Positions 1,194-62,128 of a stretch of 64,000 nucleotides of DNA are shown one piece after another. The translations under genes were made by a program, and so were the position numbers. Below the pieces are notes generated by a model. The model was not told the DNA's origin, made no database searches, and was given only the letters and a program-made list of their open reading frames with translations. Source of the stretch: Candidatus Omnitrophota bacterium. GTDB lineage: Bacteria; Omnitrophota; Gorgyraeia; Gygaellales; Profunditerraquicolaceae. Position 1 is the stretch's first letter, and each line of letters begins with the position of its first letter. Where the stretch lies: contig JAPLLZ010000029.1 in NCBI GenBank assembly GCA_026387265.1, positions 1,064 through 65,063 on the forward strand. Direction: 5' to 3'.

Positions 1194-2054
1194 ATGAAAA
1201 GTAATAAACAAAAGTTATGTTTATTAATTTTTTTAAGTTTATTTTGTTTGGCTGCGGGCTATCCCGGTGATTGGCTGGAGAAAAAAAGCGAACATTTTGT
1301 AGTGAATTTTACTCAGGATGAAAAGTTTGCTCAGGATGTATTGGATGCTGCAGAAAAAGATTACCGCAGGATAGCCTATGATTTAGGTTATGTGCGTTAT
1401 TCGGAATTCTGGACCTGGGATAAACGAGTTAAAATTTATATCTTTCCTGACCGCGCAGGATTCTTAAAAGCAACCGGCCAGCCTGATTGGTCAGAAGGCA
1501 TGGCTGATTATAGGAATAAACAGATCGTAAGTTATGTGTGGGGAAAGGGTTTTGTTGAATCCCTTCTGCCGCATGAAATAGCGCATCTGGTATTTAGGGA
1601 TTTTGTGGGTTTTGTAGGTGAAATACCTCTTTGGCTGGACGAAGGAGTGGCGCAGTGGGAGGAGGAGGCCAAAAGAAAAGATATGAAGGCCCTGATTCAG
1701 CGTTATTATCAGCAGGATAATTTATTATTGCTGAGCGATGTAATGAAGTTGAATATTGAAAATCTAAAAGGTAAACAAGGAGTACTGATTAGGGCAACGC
1801 GGACAAAAGACGGCCAGGACGGAGTTCTTTTCCTCAGTGCGAATAATTTAGTAGAAATTTATTATCTTCAATCCGTTGCTTTAATTGGGTATCTTATTGA
1901 AAAGTATGGTTCTAATTCTTTTTCCGGGTTTTGCCGTGAATTGCGCGACGGCAAAAATGTGGAAGAGGCCTTAAAGACAGCTTATCCTTTACATATACGT
2001 AATCTACGGGAGTTTGAGGATGGATGGAGGGAATATTTAAAGACAGGTGGTTAA
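1194..2054 (+). CDS. Secreted zinc metallopeptidase-like protein (HExxH, peptidase-MA-like)
   Basis: Signal peptide MKSNKQKLCLLIFLSLFCLAAG; HExxH site LLPHEIAHLVF with downstream LDEGVAQWEEE Glu-rich region (gluzincin-like); no closer family recognised. Confidence 0.6.
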   Translation: MKSNKQKLCLLIFLSLFCLAAGYPGDWLEKKSEHFVVNFTQDEKFAQDVLDAAEKDYRRIAYDLGYVRYSEFWTWDKRVKIYIFPDRAGFLKATGQPDWSEGMADYRNKQIVSYVWGKGFVESLLPHEIAHLVFRDFVGFVGEIPLWLDEGVAQWEEEAKRKDMKALIQRYYQQDNLLLLSDVMKLNIENLKGKQGVLIRATRTKDGQDGVLFLSANNLVEIYYLQSVALIGYLIEKYGSNSFSGFCRELRDGKNVEEALKTAYPLHIRNLREFEDGWREYLKTGG

Positions 2055-12447: not shown

Positions 12448-12461
12448 ATTATAAAGGAACT

Positions 12462-12641
12462 TTCCGCCTCAGAAGCTATTTCAAAATTCTCTAGAATTTT
12501 GAAATATTCGGCGGAATAATCCTTACTCTTTTCATTCGTAAGGATTTCGCTAAACAAGAGCTAAGGGAGCTCAAATTCGCGGACACTCCAACAAGCTGGA
12601 GCTACAACTTACGTCGGCTGCGGCTTCCGTAAGTTGTCCGC
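12462..12641. repeat. Modular multi-hairpin repeat element, long copy (modules 1-4)
   Basis: Module 1 12462-12516 (TTCCGCC / TCAGAAGCT / 12-bp stem ATTTCAAAATTC / ATTC / GGCGGAA); module 2 12519-12545 (ATCCTTAC-N11-GTAAGGAT); module 3 12558-12572 (GAGCT-AAGGG-AGCTC); module 4 12579-12641 (GCGGACA ... ACAACTTACG-N14-CGTAAGTTGT ... TGTCCGC). Modules 1 and 4 recur at 40559-40674. Confidence 0.7.
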
Positions 12642-12663
12642 TCATTTAAGGAGGATTAATTCG

Positions 12664-13626
12664 ATGTGGTCATTACAGTTAAGAATGTGGTTGCTGGTAA
12701 CTTTGCTCTTTGGAATTATTTATGCTTTATTAGTTGTAGTGGGCAGTAGTTTTTTGCACGTAAGCAGTTTTAGTTTCTACCTGATTATCTCTTTAGTCAT
12801 GATGATTATTCAGTATATGGTAGGGCCTAAAATTGTAGAGTGGAGTATGCGCGTTAAGTATATTAAGAGAGAAGAGAACCCGCGCCTGTTTCAGATAGTA
12901 GAAAGTTTAAGTGTGCGCGCTAACATTCCCATGCCTAGAATTGGTATTGCTCAAATTGATATACCCAATGCTTTTGCTTTTGGCCGTTCTCTTAAGGACG
13001 GTAGAGTTTGTGTAACTAGCGGGATATTGAATTTACTTGATGAGGAAGAGTTAAAAGCTGTTCTTGGGCATGAATTAAGCCATTTAAAGAATCACGATGT
13101 GCTTACAATTACTTTGCTTTCAGTTATTCCAATGATTATGTACCGGATTGCCTGGCAGTTTTTATTTTATGGCCGCAGGCGTGATGAGCGGGGCGGCAAT
13201 ACCGTGTTAATCGGGCTGGCAGCCTTTTTGTTTTATTTTATAACCAATCTTTTAGTGCTTTATGCTTCGCGTATCCGGGAATATTTTGCTGACTGCGGTT
13301 CTGTGCTTTTGGGTAATCATCCGAAAGCTTTAGCCTCTAGCCTCTATAAGCTGGCTTATGGATCAGCTAAGTTAAACAAAGAAGAATTGAAGCAGACTGA
13401 AGGTTTAAAAGCATTTTTTATTAATGATCCGTCACAGGGGCGCAAGGAAGTGCTGGAGATATCACAATTAGATTTAGATAAAAGCGGTACGATTGATGCT
13501 TCTGAGCTGGAGTTGTTAAGAAGGTCGAATATACGTTTAAATTTGGGGGATAGGATGTTGGAGCTTTTAAGTACACATCCAAATATGCTTAAACGTATTA
13601 AAAGACTTTCAGAATATAAAGCTTAA
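12664..13626 (+). CDS. htpX: M48 family zinc protease HtpX
   Basis: HELSHLKNHD zinc site, TM helices, C-terminal STHPNMLKRI; ATG 12664 has AAGGAGG upstream (track start TTG 12634 lies inside the repeat). Confidence 0.85.
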   Translation: MWSLQLRMWLLVTLLFGIIYALLVVVGSSFLHVSSFSFYLIISLVMMIIQYMVGPKIVEWSMRVKYIKREENPRLFQIVESLSVRANIPMPRIGIAQIDIPNAFAFGRSLKDGRVCVTSGILNLLDEEELKAVLGHELSHLKNHDVLTITLLSVIPMIMYRIAWQFLFYGRRRDERGGNTVLIGLAAFLFYFITNLLVLYASRIREYFADCGSVLLGNHPKALASSLYKLAYGSAKLNKEELKQTEGLKAFFINDPSQGRKEVLEISQLDLDKSGTIDASELELLRRSNIRLNLGDRMLELLSTHPNMLKRIKRLSEYKA

Positions 13627-16403: not shown

Positions 16404-17094
16404 AGAAATAATTAAAGTCAACTCGATTTGTAAGAGTTATCAGGATAACTTAACTAACCTGGAAGTATTAAAAAATATTAATTTTTCTGTTTTGGCGGGT
16501 GAATTCTTGGTAATTCAGGGGCCAAGCGGCGCAGGAAAGTCGACGCTTTTACATATTTTAGGCGGTTTGGATAATCCGACCCAAGGGAAAGTTTATTTTC
16601 AAGGAGCGGATATTTATGCCATAGATGAGAATAAGCGTTCTGCTTTGCGCAATGAGAAAATAGGTTTTGTTTTTCAGTTTTTTCATCTTTTGCCGGAGTT
16701 AAATGCTTTAGAGAATGTTTTGTTACCGGGAATTTTAAAATCCTGGTGGGATAGGAAAAAAAGCTTAGGCAAGGCGCTTGAACTTTTAGAAAGATTAGGA
16801 TTATCCTCCAGGTTAAAACATCGGCCGGGTGCTTTAAGCGGCGGAGAACAACAGAGAGTGGCGATTGCCCGGGCGTTAGTCAATTGTCCGCAGCTTTTAC
16901 TTTGTGATGAGCCTACGGGTAATTTAGATTCAGAGAATGGTAAAAATATCCTGCAGCTTTTAATTGAGCTTAACCGGGCTCAAAAGATTACCATTGTGAT
17001 GGTTACTCATGATAAAGATATTGCCTGTGGAGCCGGAAGAATTATTCATTTGAAGGATGGGGTTATTCTAGGAAATAATAATGATAAACACTAA
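16396..17094 (+). CDS. lolD: Lipoprotein-releasing ABC ATPase
   Basis: Walker A GPSGAGKST, signature LSGGEQQRVAIARAL, Walker B LLLCDEPTGNLD; overlaps lolE by 8 nt. Confidence 0.85.
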   Translation: MSEEIIKVNSICKSYQDNLTNLEVLKNINFSVLAGEFLVIQGPSGAGKSTLLHILGGLDNPTQGKVYFQGADIYAIDENKRSALRNEKIGFVFQFFHLLPELNALENVLLPGILKSWWDRKKSLGKALELLERLGLSSRLKHRPGALSGGEQQRVAIARALVNCPQLLLCDEPTGNLDSENGKNILQLLIELNRAQKITIVMVTHDKDIACGAGRIIHLKDGVILGNNNDKH

Positions 17095-17217
17095 ACCCGA
17101 AAAACGAAACTCTAAACAAACTCAAAATTCTAAACTCGAAACTCAAAACATTGGTTTAAAAATTTGAGTTTTGGATTTAGGATTTGTTTAGGATTTAGAG
17201 TTTAGTGTTTAGAGTTT
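17089..17217. repeat. Inverted heptamer-array element, copy 1
   Basis: Left arm of CNCTAAA/CTCGAAA-type heptamers (17089-17147), 15-nt centre, right arm of TTTAGRR/TTTGAG-type heptamers (17163-17217); begins in the last lolD codons, ends 4 nt before the ilvE SD. Confidence 0.7.
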
Positions 17218-17233
17218 ATTAAAGGAGGTAAGC

Positions 17234-28296: not shown

Positions 28297-28980
28297 ATGG
28301 TTTATCTGATTAACATTTTAATTATATTGCTGGCGATTGCAGTAATTAAACTGGTGTTAATTTCTATCTTTTTCTATGCTGATATTAGGGCGGCGCAAAA
28401 AAGAGATCCTGCGGCGAAAAGTTTCTTAGAGATAATTTTACTTTATCCCGGGCTGCACGCTTTAGTTTATTATCGGATTGCGCATTTATTCTATGGAATA
28501 AGGTTATTCTTTTTAGCGCGCCTGTTATCTCAGGCCGGTAGGTTTTTTACCGGTATTGAAATTCATCCGGGAGCTAAAATCGGTAAACGTTTTTTTATTG
28601 ATCATGGGCTAGGAGTAGTGATTGGAGAGACGGCGGTTGTGGGTGATGATGTCCTGCTTTATCAGGGATCTACCTTGGGTGGAACCGGTATTGTTCAGGG
28701 TAAGCGCCATCCTACGGTTGGTAATAATGTGGTTATTGGAGCCGGAGCCAAAGTTTTGGGCAACATTGTTATCGGAGATAATTCTTATATTGGAGCAAAC
28801 GCAGTAGTGGTGAAAGATGTTCCGCCGAATTCTACAGTAGTGGGTGTTCCCGGTAGGATTACAAAACAGGATGGTAAGAAGATGGATGTCAGCCTGGATC
28901 ATGCGCGTATACTTGATCCGATTATGCAGACGATTGAAGAACTGCAGGATAGAGTTAAAGAATTAGAAAAGAATAAGTAA
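28297..28980 (+). CDS. cysE: Serine O-acetyltransferase
   Basis: [21 protein letters not shown], hexapeptide-repeat C-domain. ATG 28297 has a strong SD, giving an unusual hydrophobic roughly 25-aa N-terminal extension; GTG 28354 would give a canonical-length protein. Confidence 0.85.
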
Positions 28981-29113
28981 ACTCTAAACACGAAACCCTA
29001 AACTCTAAACAAACTCGAAACACTAAATCCGAATTTAAGAACTTACTTCTGAGTAATATTTGAGTTTCGGATTTAGGATTTGTTTAGGATTTCGAGTTTC
29101 GAATTTAGGATTT
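28979..29113. repeat. Inverted heptamer-array element, copy 2
   Basis: Left arm AAACTCTAAACACGAAACCCTAAACTCTAAACAAACTCGAAACACTAAATCCGAA, variable centre, right arm TTTGAGTTTCGGATTTAGGATTTGTTTAGGATTTCGAGTTTCGAATTTAGGATTT; fills the cysE-cysS spacer. Confidence 0.7.
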
Positions 29114-29120
29114 AATAATT

Positions 29121-38796: not shown

Positions 38797-39451
38797 TACT
38801 ACGACGGCGCGTCTTTGTTTAGGTTTGCATGTAGACGGTAAGTTCTATGAATACAGCCTGGAAACTGGGCGGAATCTTTCGGCGCTGTTGGTTCCAACTA
38901 TCCAGCGGGTGCTTAGTGCTGTAGGATTAAAAGTATCCGACATTGATTATTTTGCCTGCGGTTTAGGGCCAGGGTCTTTTACTGGAATCCGTATTGGTTT
39001 AGCTACGATTAAAGGGTTAAGTGTGATAAAAAATAAGCCGGTTATTGGAATCTCAACATTAGATATTCTGGCTAAGAATGCGCAGCTAGATGATCGTTTA
39101 ATCATTACTGCGGTAGATGCCAGAAGATCGCTTATTTACTGCAGTTCTTATAGGCACGTACAGGGAAAGTTGCAGCGTAAGAGTGCATATGCGCTACTTA
39201 GTTTAGATGAGTTAATTGAAAGATTCCCCGGCAAGTCGGTAATTTTGGGAGATGCTGTAGCTTTGTATGGTGATGCATTATTGGCGCGTATAAAGAATAC
39301 ATCTGTTTTAGATAAAGATTATTGGACTCCGCAGGCACACAATCTTATGGAACTGGCGTTGGACAGGATTAAAACTAAACAATTTTCTTCGGCTTTGGCG
39401 ATTAAACCCATTTATTTATATCCTAAAGAATGCCAAATAAAAACGCGATAG
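38777..39451 (+). CDS. tsaB: tRNA t6A37 biosynthesis protein TsaB
   Basis: MKILGIDTTT and GPGSFTGIRIG motifs. Confidence 0.8.
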   Translation: MKILGIDTTTARLCLGLHVDGKFYEYSLETGRNLSALLVPTIQRVLSAVGLKVSDIDYFACGLGPGSFTGIRIGLATIKGLSVIKNKPVIGISTLDILAKNAQLDDRLIITAVDARRSLIYCSSYRHVQGKLQRKSAYALLSLDELIERFPGKSVILGDAVALYGDALLARIKNTSVLDKDYWTPQAHNLMELALDRIKTKQFSSALAIKPIYLYPKECQIKTR

Positions 39452-40551
39452 GCTATCGGCCCACCTGGGCGGAAGTCAACCTAAATTGTCTGGAGCATAA
39501 TTTTAAAGAGGTTAAGTCTCTTCTGCGTCCTGAAATTAAAGTTTTGGTTACCGTAAAAGCCGATGCTTATGGGCATGGTTTAATTCCGGTAGCCAGGAAA
39601 TTAGTTGCCTGTGGTTTGGGTTATTTAGGGGTTGCCTCTATAGATGAAGGGATAAAATTAAGAAGAGCCGGAATTAAAAAACCGATTTTACTTTTAGGGT
39701 TAGTTCTTAAAGAAGATATCAGCCCGCTTTTTACTTATCAGCTTATTCCTGCAGTTTGCGACCTTCAGTTAGCCTGTGCTATTAGTGTTAAAGCTCAAAT
39801 GCTTAGGCAGGTTATGCCGGTGCATATCAAAATCGATACCGGGATGGGCAGGATCGGGGTTTTGCCCAAGGAAGCCTTTAAATTAGTAACGGATATTCAC
39901 AAACTAAAGAATATACAGATCCAGGGGATTTTTACGCATTTTCCTCTTGCGGATTCCGACCGTAAATTTACTGCCAGGCAAATCAGTATATTTGATAAAT
40001 TAGTTGTGGATTTAAAAAATAGCGGGATAGGGATTCCTCTGGTGCATGCTGCCAATAGTATTGGTTTAATTAACCATCGTAACAGCCATTTTACGATGGT
40101 TAGGCCGGGATTGGTAATTTATGGTTTGTATCCTAAGAAAAATTTAGGCTTAAAATTGAAGCCGGTGTTGAGTCTTAAAACCCGCGTAGTTTTCATTAAA
40201 CAAGTTGGCTCGCATGTCGGTATAAGTTATGGGTTAACTTATGTAACGGCGCGGCCAACGCGGATTGTTACTTTGCCTATCGGTTATGGTGATGGTTACC
40301 CGCGCAATCTTTCCAATTTAGCCTGGCTTTTGATTGGTGGCCGGAGGTTTAGGGTTAGTGGTAGAGTTTGTATGGATCAAATTATGGTGGATGTCGGTAA
40401 TTTTAAGCCGAAAATCGGAGATGAGGTAGTCTTAATTGGTAAACAGGGTAAGCAACAAATTACCGCGGAAGAACTTGCGGAGTTATCCGGTACAATTTCC
40501 TATGAGATTGTTTGTGGTTTAGGGAGTAGAATTCCTAGGATTTATAGATAA
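39430..40551 (+). CDS. alr: Alanine racemase
   Basis: PLP-lysine motif VTVKADAYGHG, C-terminal beta domain (VCMDQIMVDV). Confidence 0.9.
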   Translation: MPNKNAIGYRPTWAEVNLNCLEHNFKEVKSLLRPEIKVLVTVKADAYGHGLIPVARKLVACGLGYLGVASIDEGIKLRRAGIKKPILLLGLVLKEDISPLFTYQLIPAVCDLQLACAISVKAQMLRQVMPVHIKIDTGMGRIGVLPKEAFKLVTDIHKLKNIQIQGIFTHFPLADSDRKFTARQISIFDKLVVDLKNSGIGIPLVHAANSIGLINHRNSHFTMVRPGLVIYGLYPKKNLGLKLKPVLSLKTRVVFIKQVGSHVGISYGLTYVTARPTRIVTLPIGYGDGYPRNLSNLAWLLIGGRRFRVSGRVCMDQIMVDVGNFKPKIGDEVVLIGKQGKQQITAEELAELSGTISYEIVCGLGSRIPRIYR

Positions 40552-40558
40552 CGAAAGC

Positions 40559-40674
40559 TTCGCCTCAGAATCTACACCAAAATTATCTGGAATTTTGGTG
40601 TATTCGGCGAAATTAATACGCAGACGGCCTAACGCCTACGACTTACGTCGCTTCCGCTTCCGTAAGTTGTCTGC
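40559..40674. repeat. Modular multi-hairpin repeat element, short copy (modules 1 and 4)
   Basis: Module 1 40559-40611 (TTCGCC / TCAGAATCT / stem ACACCAAAATT / ATTC / GGCGAA); module 4 40620-40674 (GCAGAC ... ACTTACG-N13-CGTAAGT ... GTCTGC); fills the spacer between convergent alr and lptG. Confidence 0.7.
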
Positions 40675-40677
40675 TTA

Positions 40678-41775
40678 TTAAGGTAGTTTTGAAATAAGAT
40701 AGAGGCTGCTGGATAGAATAATAATGTGGCTTAATGAAGCAGCCAGAATAGGCGTGATTAAACCGGATTTTCCTATAGCCAGGCAGATCGCATCCAGGAC
40801 ATAATAGAGAAAGCCCACGATAATTGAAACTCCGATAGAAGACATCCCCGTTGCGCGTTTACGCATCAGAAGAGAAAATGGTATTCCCAAAAGGATAATG
40901 ATGATACTGGTAAATGGTGAAGTGAAACGCTGATAAAGGTCGACCTTTAAATTCCTAATTACCGTAGTGGCTCCGCTTTTAGAGAGTATCCAGATATAGT
41001 CCTGCATTTGGCGGATATTCATTTGTTCCGGTTTTTGCCTTAAAGAGGCAAGATTTTCCGGGGTTTCCGGAATACTCATGATTTCTTCTTCCAAATAATT
41101 TGGCTCGTCAATTACCTGTCCATTGCTATCAAATTTATAAGTGATACTTTGCGAAAATCTCCACAGTCCATCTTGGTAGACTCCCCTAGTAGCGATGATT
41201 TTTTTAGTCAAATTCTGTTTTTCATCTTGCTCCAAAATGGTGATCCCTTCCATGGTTTTTGCAGCTGGTAAAAACCTGCTGATAAAAAATAATCTATTCC
41301 TCATACCGTAGAGCGTAAGGTTGGTGATTGCTTCATTTTTTTTAGGCTTACCTTTTGTGCCTTCTTCAATCTGGATTTTAATTTTTTGATTTTCGACAGA
41401 AGAGACAGGGACAAATCGGTCATTTACCCAGAATACTGCTAAGCTAATTAGTAAGCCAAAGATTAGGGCATTGCGGGCGATTTCAAATATACTTAAACCG
41501 CTTGAACGCATAGCAATAATTTCATTATTGTGGTTTAGTTTTCCGAAAGTATAAACCGTACTCAAGAGACAGGCAAAAGGGGAGACCTGCACAAACATAA
41601 TCGGCAGATATGAAACATAATAGCGTATCAGCAGCGCTAAGGTGGCTTGATGTTTTAATACTTCATCTAGATTAGAAAGTAGGTCGATAACGATATAAAG
41701 AAATAGAAATACAAAAATACAAGAAAAGAAAATATAAATAATTGATTTTAGGATATAGCGGTCTAAGATGCGCAT
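40678..41775 (-). CDS. lptG: LPS export ABC permease LptG
   Basis: LptF/LptG family: 6 TM with periplasmic insert; second of an overlapping pair. Confidence 0.8.
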   Translation of the reverse strand: MRILDRYILKSIIYIFFSCIFVFLFLYIVIDLLSNLDEVLKHQATLALLIRYYVSYLPIMFVQVSPFACLLSTVYTFGKLNHNNEIIAMRSSGLSIFEIARNALIFGLLISLAVFWVNDRFVPVSSVENQKIKIQIEEGTKGKPKKNEAITNLTLYGMRNRLFFISRFLPAAKTMEGITILEQDEKQNLTKKIIATRGVYQDGLWRFSQSITYKFDSNGQVIDEPNYLEEEIMSIPETPENLASLRQKPEQMNIRQMQDYIWILSKSGATTVIRNLKVDLYQRFTSPFTSIIIILLGIPFSLLMRKRATGMSSIGVSIIVGFLYYVLDAICLAIGKSGLITPILAASLSHIIILSSSLYLISKLP

Positions 41776-45524: not shown

Positions 45525-46898
45525 ATGGAAAAGATTTATTTAGCCTCCAATTCTAAGGCCAGAAAGAAATTATTAGAAAAATTTGGCCTGAAGTTTAAAA
45601 TCCTACCTTCTAAAGTTAAAGAGCAAACTCAACGCGGTAATTTATCATATCCTCAACTTGTGCAGAAGAACGCCCGTAAAAAAGCAGAAGAAGCAGCAGC
45701 TCGAGTAACTGGTGGAATTATTATTGCCGCCGATACTATTTGTGTGCAGAATGGTAAGATCTTCGGTAAACCGAAGAATATGGCAGCTGCCCGCCGGATG
45801 CTTCAACAATTATCCAGTAGGCCGCAATGGCTATACACCGGTTTGGCACTAATTAAAAAAACTAAAAGTAAACAAAAACTCCTGCTAGATTATGAAAGAG
45901 CAAGAGTTTATATGGATAAATTAAGCCCGGCGCAGATTGATAATTATTTTAAACAGGTTTCTCCTTTAGATAAAGCCGGTAGTTTTGATATCCAGGGCAA
46001 AGGGGCATTTTTTATTAAGCGAATCGATGGGTGTTTTTATAATGTAGTCGGACTGCCTTTGAGAAAATTATATCTGATGCTTAAAAAGTTTGATGTAAAA
46101 ATTCTTTCGTTTTTTTTAACGGCCACCAGTTGTTTATTAACTGCCGTGGTTTTGTCTGGCTGCTCTACGGAATATAATCTTGCTACTAAACAGGAGGAGA
46201 AATATTATTATAGTACGGATAAGGAAGTCCAGATGGGCCAGTCAATTAACCGTAGGGTAGAAAAAGAATTAAAATTTTCCGCAGATCCATTACAGCAAAA
46301 ACGCGTGGAGGATATTGGCAAAAAGGTAGCTGCCGTCAGCGATAGAAAAGAGATTGATTATTATTTCCGGGTTTTAGATGATGATGAGGTTAACGCTGTA
46401 TCTTTACCCGGAGGGTATGTTTATATTAACAGTGGATTGTTGGATAAAGTGGCTAATGATGATGAGTTGGCCTGTGTTTTAGCACACGAGGTAGGCCATA
46501 TTGTTGCCCGGCATAGCATAAAGAAACTTCAGGCGATGCAGAGTTATTCTATTTTAAGAGTGTTAGTGGCTGTAGCTCCTGGTGCTTCAGAGGTAGGCAG
46601 CGCCGCAGATGCTGCTTTTACTCAATTTTTGCTTGGCTATAACCGCGAAGATGAGCTATTAGCAGATCAACTGGGTGCCCGTTATGCTAAATTGGCTGGT
46701 TATGATCCACATAGCATGATTACTTTTTTAATTAAGTTGCAGGATATCAACCGTAGGATGCCGCTTAGAGAACAGTCGTATTATAAGACCCACCCTTATG
46801 TTCCTGATCGGATTAGAGTAGTTAAGCAGGAACTGGGGGAGCAGATTGATTTTGGGGACTACATCAATATTGAACAAGAAAGCCACCAGCCCCGTTAG
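45525..46898 (+). CDS. Maf nucleotide pyrophosphatase domain fused in frame to an M48 metalloprotease lipoprotein
   Basis: Residues 1-190 Maf-like (IYLASNSKARKKLLE, AGSFDIQG, YNVVGLPL). An internal ATG 46077 opens the lipoprotein signal MLKKFDVKILSFFLTATSCLLTAVVLSGC, followed by an M48 domain (HEVGHIVARH, THPYVPDRI). No stop codon lies between the two parts. Confidence 0.75.
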   Translation: MEKIYLASNSKARKKLLEKFGLKFKILPSKVKEQTQRGNLSYPQLVQKNARKKAEEAAARVTGGIIIAADTICVQNGKIFGKPKNMAAARRMLQQLSSRPQWLYTGLALIKKTKSKQKLLLDYERARVYMDKLSPAQIDNYFKQVSPLDKAGSFDIQGKGAFFIKRIDGCFYNVVGLPLRKLYLMLKKFDVKILSFFLTATSCLLTAVVLSGCSTEYNLATKQEEKYYYSTDKEVQMGQSINRRVEKELKFSADPLQQKRVEDIGKKVAAVSDRKEIDYYFRVLDDDEVNAVSLPGGYVYINSGLLDKVANDDELACVLAHEVGHIVARHSIKKLQAMQSYSILRVLVAVAPGASEVGSAADAAFTQFLLGYNREDELLADQLGARYAKLAGYDPHSMITFLIKLQDINRRMPLREQSYYKTHPYVPDRIRVVKQELGEQIDFGDYINIEQESHQPR

Positions 46899-46954
46899 AG
46901 ACAGGCTGCCGAAGGCAGCCGTTAGTTACCCTAGGTGTCTTGTCTCTAACGGGG
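46890..46954. repeat. 64-65-bp palindromic element (CCCCGTTAGAG...CTCTAACGGGG), intergenic copy
   Basis: 14-bp terminal inverted repeats CCCCGTTAGAGACA / TGTCTCTAACGGGG, internal hairpin GGCTGCC-GAA-GGCAGCC. Contains the upstream stop TAG (46896-46898) and ends on the G of the downstream GTG start. Confidence 0.75.
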
Positions 46955-48069
46955 TGAATAGAATAATTGCTCTCTTGGTAATTTTTTTGTTAACCTTTTG
47001 CCGTTTACCGGCAGGAGAGATTTCCGATAAGAAATATATGAAAAATAATGTGGCGCATTTAGACAAGGTAAATTTTGATAACCCTTTTGGGGTTTTGGAA
47101 TTTTTGCATTGGAATCATTCTTGGAATAATTATAAATATTCCAGCCAACGCGATTTGGAAGAAGTGGTTTCCCTTATGCGTGATGCTGGTGTGGGTTGGG
47201 TAAGGTGGGATTTTTTATGGTCAGATATCGAAGCTCAGGAGGGGAAGTTTGACTTTACTAAATATGACAATATTGTTAAGGTGCTTAAAAATAATGATAT
47301 TCATATTTTAGGTGTTTTACATTACAGTACAAATTGGGCTTCTTCCTGCGGCGAATGGAATTGTCCGCCTGAAGATAACCAGAAATTCGTAAATTACGCA
47401 AGCAAAGTTATCCAGCGCTATAAGGATCAAGTGAAGTATTGGGAGGTTTGGAATGAACCGGATTCAGCTATCTACTGGAAAAAGCAGGATAGTCTTAAGT
47501 CTTATTGTATTCTATTGAAAGAGGTTTATTTGGCAGCTAAAAAAATAGACCCTGATTGTAAGATTCTAAATGGCGGCATTGCCAATGGTTTAGTTAGTAT
47601 TAATCATTTGTATGATAATGGAGCAAAAGATTATTTTGATATATTAAACCTGCATTTTTTTGAAAGCCCTTTACATGGAAAAAATGGTATAAAGGCGGTA
47701 ATTAGTTATCCTAATCTTGCTTATAAAATAATGGTGCGTAATGGTGATGCGCATAAGAAAATCTGGATAACGGAGATTGGCTGCCCGGGGGTAGAATCCG
47801 GATTAAAGACAGATAATTGGTGGATGGGAGAGAATCCTGATGAGCGCCAACAGGCTGAATGGGTAAAAGAAGTTTATGGCGAATTGTTAAAAAATCAGCA
47901 GGTGGAAAAAATTTTCTGGGCCTTTTTCCGTGATACCAAGGAACATTGGGGTAATGGTGTTGATTATTTTTGTTTAGTGCGTTGGGATTATTCCACCAAG
48001 CCTTCCTTTGAAGCTTATCAAAAGCGTTATCAGGAGTGGAAAAAGAATAAAGCCGTAAGGCCTAAGTGA
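46954..48069 (+). CDS. Secreted clan GH-A (TIM-barrel) glycoside hydrolase-like protein
   Basis: GTG 46954 gives the signal peptide (M)NRIIALLVIFLLTFCRLPAG; YWEVWNEPD (acid/base Glu) and KIWITEIG (nucleophile Glu) signatures; the track start 46846 reads through the repeat. Confidence 0.65.
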   Translation: MNRIIALLVIFLLTFCRLPAGEISDKKYMKNNVAHLDKVNFDNPFGVLEFLHWNHSWNNYKYSSQRDLEEVVSLMRDAGVGWVRWDFLWSDIEAQEGKFDFTKYDNIVKVLKNNDIHILGVLHYSTNWASSCGEWNCPPEDNQKFVNYASKVIQRYKDQVKYWEVWNEPDSAIYWKKQDSLKSYCILLKEVYLAAKKIDPDCKILNGGIANGLVSINHLYDNGAKDYFDILNLHFFESPLHGKNGIKAVISYPNLAYKIMVRNGDAHKKIWITEIGCPGVESGLKTDNWWMGENPDERQQAEWVKEVYGELLKNQQVEKIFWAFFRDTKEHWGNGVDYFCLVRWDYSTKPSFEAYQKRYQEWKKNKAVRPK

Positions 48070-57492: not shown

Positions 57493-57573
57493 TGCGGGAG
57501 GAGGGAGTTGAACCCTCAAGGGTTACCCCACACGCTTCTGAGACGTGCGCGTATGCCATTCCGCCACTCCCGC
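57493..57573 (-). tRNA. tRNA-Leu (anticodon CAG)
   Basis: Hand-folded: acceptor GCGGGAG/CTCCCGC, D arm GCG-GAATGGCATA-CGC, anticodon arm CACGT-CTCAGAA-GCGTG, 13-nt variable arm, T arm GAGGG-TTCAACT-CCCTC, discriminator A; CCA not encoded. Confidence 0.9.
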
Positions 57574-59289: not shown

Positions 59290-59710
59290 GGGGGTGAAAG
59301 GGTTCGACTTAAGATATGTCGCTTAAGAGCAGCATGCCGCGGATGTAAGGTTAGCCGCGTTAACAATCCTTGCACAATTCAAACGCAAACACAAAAACAC
59401 CAGTGTTCACAAACCGATTGGCAGCGTTACCGGGTTTTCAGCCGGTAGCATTTCCAGCTGGTTGCGTACCAGTCTTAGCGTTTAATTAAACGCTAAGCCT
59501 CTAGCTGTCCTGCCTACGGGATAGATTAGAGCTCAAGTAGGATAGTCCCGGCGGTTAGCCTTCCAAACCGGGGCAAAATCGAAAAGGCTGCATCTTGCAA
59601 ATCCTGCCGGGTAGGAGTTGCAAGGTTAAGAATAAATTACCAGGCTAAGCATGTAGCGGTTTTTAGGTGATTACTTAAGGACGGCGGTCCGATTCCGCCC
59701 ACCTCCACCA
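59290..59710 (+). ncRNA. ssrA: tmRNA (SsrA)
   Basis: 5' GGGGGTGAAAGGGTTCGAC; 3' tRNA-like end GGACGGCGGTCCGATTCCGCCCACCTCCACCA. The acceptor pairs GGGGGTG/CACCTCC with the G3-U pair. Tag ORF 59385-59489 has its stop in the loop of the CTTAGCGTTT/AAACGCTAAG hairpin. Confidence 0.9.
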
Positions 59711-61689: not shown

Positions 61690-62128
61690 CTTAAAAGTAC
61701 AGGGGACTTTTAGTTCTGCGCATAATTTAAGAGGCTATAAAGGTAAATGTGAAGATTTGCATGGGCATAATTGGGTAGTGGAGATAGTGGTTAAATCTAA
61801 GAGGCTAGATAATATCGGCATGGTTTTGGATTTTAAATTCCTGAAGAAAAAATTAAATGTTTGTTTAGAGCAGATGGATCATAAGTATCTTAATCAACTG
61901 TCTTATTTTAAAAAAGTAAACCCCGTTAGAGGCAGGGCGCCGAAGGTAACCGACGGCTGCCTGCGGCAGCCTGCCTCTAACGGGGTAAATCCAACCTCTG
62001 AAAATATTGCTAAATATGTTTATGATCAACTTAAATCTTCGATTCCTTTATTAAATTGTGTAACGGTCTGGGAAAATAGTACAAGCAGCGCTACCTATGA
62101 ACCTAGCCCTTCCTCGGGTAGGGATTAA
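61682..62128 (+). CDS. queD: 6-carboxy-5,6,7,8-tetrahydropterin synthase QueD, carrying a 23-codon repeat-derived insertion
   Basis: FSSAHNLRGYKGKCEDLHGHNW, MDHKYLN, NPTSENIAKY motifs; 148 aa versus the roughly 120 aa I recall as typical. Confidence 0.85.
   Translation: MYSLKVQGTFSSAHNLRGYKGKCEDLHGHNWVVEIVVKSKRLDNIGMVLDFKFLKKKLNVCLEQMDHKYLNQLSYFKKVNPVRGRAPKVTDGCLRQPASNGVNPTSENIAKYVYDQLKSSIPLLNCVTVWENSTSSATYEPSPSSGRD
61921..61984. repeat. 64-bp palindromic element (CCCCGTTAGAG...CTCTAACGGGG), copy inside queD
   Basis: Termini CCCCGTTAGAGGCAGG / CCTGCCTCTAACGGGG; the internal part (GGTAACCGACGGCTGCCTGCGGCAGCC) matches the reverse complement of the internal part of 46890-46954; flanked by GTAAAYCC 69 bp apart. 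Confidence 0.8.

Follow-up and report, generated by a model that had tools for sequence, protein, structure and literature searches.

The Correia elements (CREE/NEMIS) of Neisseria and the enterobacterial ERIC, REP and BIME elements are repeated, hairpin-forming intergenic elements that are co-transcribed with their neighbours and whose presence at orthologous sites varies; such elements can provide genes with promoters or with sites for RNase III and can alter the stability of mRNAs. In phage T7 the intercistronic RNase III sites and the gene 10 leader, and in phage T4 the promoter-stem-loop cassettes, place a standard internal-loop hairpin before the strong ribosome-binding sites of unrelated genes, and these cassettes are reused across the genome and, in T4, shuffled. 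Stable hairpins are also known as 5'-terminal stabilisers, as in the 5' untranslated region (UTR) of Escherichia coli ompA, in Bacillus aprE and in the stabiliser Shine-Dalgarno (SD) of cryIIIA (STAB-SD). Here we describe a composite two-hairpin element of the Candidatus Omnitrophota, two copies of which lie in a 64,000 nt stretch of contig JAPLLZ010000029.1 (hereafter the window), copy A in front of an htpX-like gene and copy B in the gap between the convergent genes alr and lptG. Our working hypothesis, which we hold with moderate confidence, is that the family to which both copies belong is a cis-acting 5' leader cassette of housekeeping genes that is also copied around, and that copy B is an orphan of this family in a terminator-type slot.

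The likeness of the Omnitrophota element to each of these systems is partial. The Correia, ERIC, REP and BIME elements bear either terminal inverted repeats or a short, fixed palindrome; within one genome their copies are nearly identical, and they occur in either orientation and lie mostly after genes, whereas the Omnitrophota element is composite, is strand-coupled to the downstream gene, ends in the SD or AUG of that gene and is found at the same genes across the phylum. It is reused like the T7 and T4 cassettes but has no sequence similarity to them; those are phage systems of single genomes in which cleavage has been demonstrated. A stable hairpin near the predicted 5' end recalls the 5' stabilisers, as does an SD-like AAGGWA, which is enriched 1-20 nt before the first hairpin, P1, in about a fifth of copies. 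The known stabilisers, however, are gene-specific and share no sequence family, whereas the Omnitrophota cassette is homologous throughout and serves dozens of genes. Within the window, an SD-like AAGGAAC stands at 12452-12458, before P1 of copy A, and copy B is without such a motif. Two further identities were considered and rejected. In REP/RAYT (REPIN) systems near-identical palindromes of 20-40 nt flank a Y1 gene; the present element is composite and 115-180 nt long, and the Y1_Tnp genes found at two of our loci (L147 and L150; gathered loci carry L numbers) are flanked by another palindrome, GGGGACGGTTCTC. An integron attC site does not fit flanks that are core housekeeping genes in conserved synteny, nor a TTAAC/GTTAA that varies among copies, although no search for intI was made.

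More than 130 related copies were gathered. A pattern for P1 only, scanned over one genome per species (185,579 species), gave 24 matches, 13 of them true copies (12 in metagenome-assembled genomes (MAGs) of Candidatus Omnitrophota/Omnitrophica and one in a MAG labelled Planctomycetales) and 11 of them chance matches in which no hairpin is formed. A pattern for the flanks of the second hairpin, P2 (AAATTCGC ... GCTCATTTAAAGGAG), which is blind to P1, was scanned over metagenomes and gave at least 120 loci with at least 125 instances. Apart from the Planctomycetales-labelled MAG, true copies occur only in Omnitrophota, and a homology search found the Alr of the window to be 100% identical to the alanine racemase of a Candidatus Omnitrophica MAG. 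The element is apparently undescribed so far. Rfam 15 at gathering thresholds recognized only a tmRNA and one tRNA in the window, and at E <= 1 it matched only a tRNA at four loci with typical copies. A literature search returned no paper in which Omnitrophota or Omnitrophica are connected with a stem-loop element, a leader or an RNA motif; in the one paper where both come up, Rfam served for annotation only.

From 5' to 3' the family consists of P1, which is variable and GC-closed, a linker (AUAAAUUC), P2, which is a long hairpin or a three-way junction, a tail (UCAUUUAAAGGAGG) and the start codon. P1 is closed by (U)CCC...GGG(A). Both window copies have type I (CCCGCC-UCA-GAAGCU...AUUC-GGCGGG), with a long bulged inner stem; a variant is type I minus this inner stem (CCCGCCUCAAAUUAUUCGGCGGG), a second type reads CCCUCGCUUAAGC...GCAAGCUCGGG, and elsewhere P1 is a plain GC hairpin. 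The linker reads AU AAAUUC and P2 reads GCGC-A-UUAACUUAC-UC-ACAC-loop-GUGU-UC-GUAAGUUAA-GCGC. In many copies a small extra hairpin replaces the bulged A of P2 and generates the three-way junction; this is the case in both window copies, which represent different subtypes, GCGGAC with CUCCNNCAANCNGGAG in copy A (as in L067 and L092) and GCAGAC with a GGCC-hairpin in copy B. Optional modules may sit between P1 and P2, as in copy A, whose module 2 is also present in L023 and L038 and whose module 3 recurs in L023, L030, L038, L062, L111 and L119. Tandem or partial duplications (P2 - tail - P1 - P2) before one gene were seen at L025, L052 (299-484), L141 (183-252 and upstream), L113 and L034, and L026 (6036-6258) holds two SD-less copies arranged head to head, with similar unknown sequences after them.

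The window copies fit this description in unequal measure. P1 and P2 (the latter with its CUUAC/GUAAG helix and basal A/U helix) are found in both, and P1 also in the independent copy at L145, whereas the tail UCAUUUAAAGGAGG with a start codon is found in copy A and not in copy B. Matches to the P2 model R1, which was built without the window copies, single out copies A and B as the only two with E <= 0.01 in 64 kb; the training set of the P1 model R2 included both window copies (match positions are given in Table 1). Each copy folds far better than its shuffles (B, -45.2 kcal/mol, z = -6.6; A, -68 kcal/mol, z = -7.1), and the helices of copy B are free of mismatches in the predicted fold.

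A first-pass annotation of the window had proposed, from a comparison of these two copies, that the element is a selected structure with compensatory stem changes around a conserved internal loop. The comparison itself is sound. Between hairpin 1 of copy A (arms ATTTCAAAATT / AATTTTGAAAT) and that of copy B (ACACCAAAATT / AATTTTGGTGT) ATTTC of the 5' arm is replaced by ACACC and GAAAT of the 3' arm by GGTGT, so that three pairs differ with pairing kept (T:A to C:G, T:A to A:T and T:A to C:G, at 5'-arm positions 2-4 and 3'-arm positions 8-10). The closing stem of module 4, the P2 junction, differs by one compensatory pair (GCGGAC/GTCCGC in A, GCAGAC/GTCTGC in B), the core ACTTACG...CGTAAGT is common to both copies, and the window contains the 16-mer GCTTCCGTAAGTTGTC exactly two times, where 0.26 occurrences would be expected at up to three mismatches. 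The internal loop, TCAGAAKCT with ATTC, is conserved as the annotation stated, but it is not fully unpaired: pairs are predicted between GAA and UUC and between the U of KCU and the A of AUUC, so that the conserved bases truly unpaired in the predicted P1 fold are the bulges UCA and KC.

Selection could not be demonstrated from two copies by themselves; the wider family demonstrates it. In P2, with 77 distinct copies found by a search pattern that left the middle of P2 free, 92.7% of cells are paired and 175 cells carry double changes, against 57.6 +/- 5.9 in shuffled alignments, none of 500 of which reached the observed value; sliding the partners by 1-3 columns lowers pairing to 20-42%. The 25 distinct long type-I copies of P1 are 96.9% paired, with 50 double-change cells against 9.5 +/- 2.7 (again 0 of 500). 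Compensatory changes affect 12 of the P1 pairs, including the three that differ between the window copies, and the outer stem also covaries (UUC/GAA, UCC/GGA, UUU/AAA, UAC/GUA). A basal helix, newly seen here, pairs the AAAU of the linker with the AUUU of the tail across a 2x2 loop; among 22 copies picked regardless of these bases one of its pairs is A:U in 15 and U:A in six, the form found in copy B, and another pair is once G:C. Stems that covary, and bulge and loop bases that are conserved, over many independent copies bear out the structure first proposed from two, and uncorrelated substitution in the stems is ruled out. An element may contain the 2x2 loop itself, 5'-UC-3'/5'-UC-3', as many as three times. 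Almost every copy has it at the P2 base, 43 of 77 have it in apical P2, and 23-34 of 79 have it in P1. On the complementary strand it corresponds to a tandem G.A motif, and this loop would be our likeliest candidate for a recognition feature.

A second body of evidence is the position of the copies. In the set ascertained by P1, taken with the two window copies, 14 of 15 stand directly before a start codon in the sense orientation. An SD is present in 11 of these 14, among them L008, which has no P2 and uses the SD-like loop of module 3; the other three, before nusB in two genomes and before lpxD, have no SD, and their AUG lies at the foot of P2. The start codon lies 3-10 nt past GGAG in 107 of 125 copies of the metagenome set, a link inflated there by ascertainment with a perfect SD. 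Extra R1 copies in the flanks include three with SD and ATG, two further SD-less starts (one of them radA), two orphans followed by a sigma-70 promoter (L081, and L051 after groEL) and one divergent pair. At the SD-less starts, namely those of nusB, lpxD, radA and one unidentified gene, the AUG comes directly after the P2 tail (UCAUUUAAUG or UCAUUUAUG) and 6-7 nt past the GC stem, which suggests that initiation or 5'-end formation is directed by the structure. The same tRNA-Lys-Leu-Gly operon is directly preceded by the element in two genomes (L135:2756-2895, minus strand; L112:2509-2713, plus strand), in L135 with the tail abutting the first tRNA base; the element is therefore not solely a translation signal. 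In the window, the leader element precedes neither the tmRNA gene (165 bits in Rfam) at 59290-59710 nor the tRNA gene at 57493-57573 on the minus strand.

The genes served are diverse. The 107 downstream proteins fall into 86 Pfam families, of which the commonest are AMPK1_CBM and CBM_48 (six each, in the same proteins), PFK (five), L19 (five), S16 (five), AsnC (four), DUF5679 (four) and ATP-synt_C (three); enolase, Cpn60 (GroEL), SAM synthetase and L31 are also present. The element is kept at orthologous genes across genomes, at htpX in the window and in L111, whose ortholog begins MWSLQLRMW behind the same leader, and elsewhere at rplS, rpsP, pfk and nusB. In 86 of 93 cases the neighbouring gene upstream shares the strand of the element, and it usually ends less than 100 nt before P2, so that the element tends to take up the entire intergenic space; this is true of both window copies. 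At several loci a canonical TTGACA-17-TATAAT promoter lies 25-35 nt upstream of P1, which places the element inside the 5' UTR there; over all copies, relative to P1, TTGAC is enriched at -70 to -41 and TAnnAT at -50 to -31. To set the 5' end of the leader, we searched from an anchor at the hairpin's 3' end, minimum-free-energy folds being unreliable for this purpose.

Two other explanations of a conserved leader were weighed. A riboswitch or other ligand-sensing leader would account for a structured 5' UTR with invariant unpaired nucleotides. We consider it highly improbable for an element that precedes 86 unrelated Pfam families and tRNAs, consists of two simple rods without a conserved multi-helix core, never sequesters the SD in predicted folds and matches nothing in Rfam at E <= 1. 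Alternatively, the element might be a processive antitermination leader that makes RNA polymerase termination-resistant, like the rRNA boxB-boxA leader or the put RNA of phage HK022. In favour of this are its two-hairpin architecture, its position ahead of highly transcribed units (tRNA operons and nusB among them) and its tail GCUCAUUUAA, which by eye agrees at 8 of 11 positions with the E. coli rrn boxA (GCUCUUUAACA). This explanation too is very unlikely, for the boxA-like tail forms a covarying helix with the linker, unlike a single-stranded protein site, and the fixed distance to the SD or AUG would be needless in such an element. An rRNA operon was sought in the gathered loci with the 27F primer pattern and six conserved rRNA motifs without any real match, the sole match, in L100, lying inside a trpF-like gene.

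Several other observations, in addition to the ascertainment of the metagenome set, weigh against the leader cassette. In about 2,400 paired cells, G.U pairs number 36 and A.C mismatches 35. A structure selected only in RNA normally tolerates G.U; with G.U as disfavoured as A.C, the constraint may be on DNA hairpins, on both strands or on a perfect duplex. Some copies are orphans, and one is antisense between tRNA genes. A consensus scan found no promoter upstream of either window copy, and where transcripts start, where they are processed and how strongly they are expressed is in every case an inference. Given its perfect pairing, copy B may have a function of its own and not be a relic. We nevertheless lean towards the RNA level, because the element keeps a strict sense orientation to the gene it serves, is integrated with the SD or AUG, has promoters upstream of P1 and carries conserved bulges that are strongly strand-asymmetric (R2 scores of 72-80 bits in the sense and 29-37 bits in the antisense orientation).

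The equal frequency of G.U and A.C is what DNA hairpins predict, and we have therefore weighed the possibility that the element is selfish or semi-domesticated mobile palindromic DNA, akin to miniature inverted-repeat transposable elements or REP, which spreads as single-stranded DNA hairpins through a hairpin-specific transposase or gene conversion and whose leader positions were co-opted. On this view the covariation would stem from the requirement for a hairpin in DNA. The presence/absence/inversion polymorphism at the alr/lptG gap (plus orientation in the window, minus in L145, absent in L146-L151) agrees with this, as do the duplications at L025, L052, L141 and L113 and the optional modules. 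So does the likeness of P1 copies, which are slightly more alike within than between genomes (0.68 vs 0.60, p = 5e-4) and form 'dialects' per genome (four copies in L091, three in bin-608), being identical in L016 and L017; such dialects fit either copying between sites or co-evolution with a reader. The host genomes do carry mobile palindromes with Y1 transposases, but these genes are flanked by the other palindrome and not by the element. Moreover, 14 of the 15 copies found regardless of SD abut a start codon in sense, the same genes bear the element across divergent genomes, copies within one genome (in bin-608, and A and B in the window) differ by compensatory changes and are not near-identical, and a scan of viral contigs gave no copy. 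No terminal inverted repeats or target duplications were noticed on reading the copies, although no dedicated search was run; the element ends (CCCGCC... and ...GCUCAUUUAA) are not mutual inverted repeats, and the 'empty' sites hold other palindromes, which hampers a check for target duplications. On balance we regard mobile DNA as a rather unlikely account of the family.

Copy B is best judged from its site. As the first-pass annotation had noted, it fills the gap between the convergent stops of alr and lptG, which measures 126 nt. It consists of P1, linker and P2, the stop region of lptG closing its basal helix, and has no SD tail and no downstream plus-strand open reading frame (ORF). The order tsaE, tsaB, alr, convergent lptG, lptF is kept in seven relatives found by an Alr homology search (Alr 77-88% identical to that of the window), and their gaps are occupied as listed in Table 1. 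The palindrome GGGGACGGTTCTC...GAGAACCGTCCCC occupies the gap in L146 and L149 as well as in L147 and L150; in the latter two, pairs of it flank Y1 transposase genes (Pfam PF01797), a REP/RAYT- or IS200-like arrangement. The slot is always filled by a strong hairpin, and which hairpin is lineage-specific, so there is DNA-level turnover of the element at this gap. Such a comparison of neighbouring lineages suggests that the occupant is at most a 3'-end hairpin for the convergent genes. In L145 (3623-3655), the closest of the relatives, the alr ORF is 11 codons longer than that of the window and runs into the inverted element before its stop. The sequence TTAAGGTAG after copy B was considered as a decayed ribosome-binding site and rejected: it is the last codons of lptG, and the C-terminus LISKLP* and its DNA are conserved in relatives without the element.

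We tentatively entertain, as a possibility compatible with the leader cassette, that copy B is a bidirectional 3'-end hairpin, a terminator or stabiliser, for alr and lptG. The gap holds a strong palindrome in all seven relatives, often beside A and T runs; copy B, with its stable and mismatch-free helices, begins 7 nt past the alr stop and overlaps that of lptG; and the orphans at L081 and L051 likewise lie after gene ends, just before the next promoter. On the other side, no U-tract follows either hairpin on the plus strand, and a consensus scan found no plus-strand terminator in or beside either window copy and one weak minus-strand site, at chance frequency, so copy B does not have the form of an intrinsic (Rho-independent) terminator.

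For the family as a whole, we return to the leader cassette as the favoured explanation. The leader would comprise, in order, the GC-closed P1, one or two free bases, P2, whose base is a 5-bp A/U helix formed by linker AUAAAU with tail AUUUA, and an exposed AAGGAGG with the start codon; some copies would instead have the AUG, or the first base of a tRNA, directly after P2. Acting in cis on the transcript, it would give housekeeping genes, many of them of kinds that other bacteria express strongly, a standard expression cassette. The two stable helices may shield the 5' end or fix its position, and keep the ribosome-binding site apart from the sequence upstream, and the UC/UC loops and CUUAC/GUAAG helix may be contacts for a shared factor, for example a double-strand RNA-binding protein or nuclease. 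The predicted geometry of P2, about 20 bp with 2x2 loops, is compatible with an RNase III processing hairpin. The cassette would be copied or replaced within genomes; copy B, having P1 and P2 without an SD tail or gene, would be an orphan product of this process, whose function, if any, is most probably that of a 3'-end hairpin.

Other readings of parts of the leader were tried and rejected. A promoter inside the element, with the -10-like ATAAAT/TAAATT in the linker, would have its -35 in the variable P1, where it is absent if P1 is short, and its start would cut the covarying base of P2. A small upstream ORF in P1 (ATGCC...GGATAA) lacks its ATG in both window copies and in many others. ARAGORN called no tRNA-like fold, and an alternative pairing of the 5' flank GGUAAGUU with the P2 arm AACUUAC is available in few copies only.

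Table 1. Window copies A and B, their parts and adjoining genes, followed by occupants of the alr/lptG gap in relatives and by SD-less copies. Locations without an L number are window positions; structures are predicted folds; Alr values are identities to the window.
Feature	Location	Strand	Description
alr	39430-40551	+	Stop 40549-40551; ends 7 nt before copy B
Copy B, whole	40559-40674	+	P1, linker and P2
Copy B, P1 (module 1)	40559-40611	+	Outer stem UUCGCC/GGCGAA, bulge UCA, GAA:UUC pairs, bulge UC, 12-bp inner stem, loop AUCUGG; R2 match 40558-40612, 72.0 bits, E = 4.8e-20 (copy B in R2 training set)
Copy B, linker	40612-40619	+	AUUAAUAC (family consensus AUAAAUUC); 5' strand of P2 basal helix, predicted to pair with 40675-40681
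Copy B, P2 three-way junction (module 4)	40620-40674	+	Stem GCAGAC/GUCUGC, branch GGC...GCC 40626-40636, hairpin ACUUACG...CGUAAGU 40641-40667; R1 match 40625-40687, 21.9 bits
Copy B, tail	40675-40681	+	UUAUUAA; 3' strand of basal helix; overlaps lptG stop; no SD after it
lptG	40678-41775	-	Convergent with alr; stop 40678-40680 within copy B tail; Pfam LptF_LptG in syntenic relatives
Copy A, P1	12462-12516	+	R2 match 80.2 bits (copy A in R2 training set)
Copy A, optional module 2	12518-12546	+	Second CUUAC...GUAAG hairpin, AAUCCUUAC-loop-GUAAGGAUU, kin to P2 core; weak R1 match 12511-12551, aligned on P2 core
Copy A, optional module 3	12547-12572	+	UUCGCUAAACAA and hairpin GAGCU-AAGGG-AGCUC with SD-like loop
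Copy A, linker, P2 three-way junction and tail	12573-12654	+	Linker AAAUUC; P2 GCGGAC...GUCCGC 12579-12641; tail UCAUUUAAGGAGG, SD AAGGAGG 12648-12654; R1 match 12596-12654, 31.2 bits
htpX-like gene	12664-13626	+	Behind copy A; true start ATG 12664, 9 nt past SD
Gap occupant, Alr 88%	L145	-	Same family, inverted, long form; P1 on minus strand, R2 72.2 bits
Gap occupant, Alr 83%	L146:3622-3660; L149:2633-2676		Palindrome GGGGACGGTTCT...AGAACCGTCCCC
Gap occupant, Alr 80% and 79%	L147:3615-4340; L150:2625-3340		Y1 transposase gene between two palindromes of the GGGGACGGTTCT...AGAACCGTCCCC type
Gap occupant, Alr 77% and 80%	L148; L151		Two further, different palindromes
SD-less copies	L005:450-526; L024:3102-3165(-); L006 ~1300-1384(-); L132:3177-3243(-); L045:8756-8821(-)		AUG directly after P2 tail

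Other repeats occur in the window. A further palindromic repeat, CCCCGTTAGAGRCAGG ... CCTGYCTCTAACGGGG, with arms of 14-33 nt that are 85-100% complementary, lies at 46890-46959 and 61920-61990; these are possibly REP-like or terminator hairpins. Positions 17084-17220 and 28978-29118 hold two copies of a long low-complexity imperfect palindrome whose 66-nt arms are 73% complementary, one side being built of TAAAC/CGAAAC-like and the other of GTTTAG/GATTTAG-like units.

The Omnitrophota are a widespread uncultured phylum of very small, reduced and reportedly hyperactive cells, and to our knowledge almost nothing has been described of how they control gene expression. A single conserved leader, backed by covariation, that stands before ribosomal-protein, chaperone, glycolysis, ATP-synthase and tRNA genes would, if our hypothesis is correct, provide a direct handle on that control. 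It is tempting to speculate further that the shared leader marks many housekeeping protein genes and some tRNA operons, and that a dedicated trans-acting factor reads the UC/UC loops, giving a single post-transcriptional growth control; this extension of the leader cassette we consider decidedly unlikely. Its counterpart would be the regulon of the eukaryotic 5' terminal oligopyrimidine (TOP) motif, likewise a common 5' leader on ribosomal-protein and growth-related mRNAs. The analogy is functional only, the 5' TOP motif belonging to another domain of life and being a short unstructured pyrimidine tract with a known reader protein, whereas we know of no reader for the Omnitrophota element. In a variant of this proposal, the element may direct exact 5'-end formation, and the SD-less nusB, lpxD and radA may be translated from the AUG at the foot of P2. 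Copy B alone teaches a narrower lesson, that of an orphan in a slot filled by other palindromes in relatives. The family as a whole would give resources such as Rfam a new RNA (or DNA-hairpin) entry, and would be a ready-made marker both for Omnitrophota sequence and for gene starts in the annotation of MAGs. As a natural standardised expression cassette, seemingly copied between genes, it bears on the way in which regulatory elements spread.

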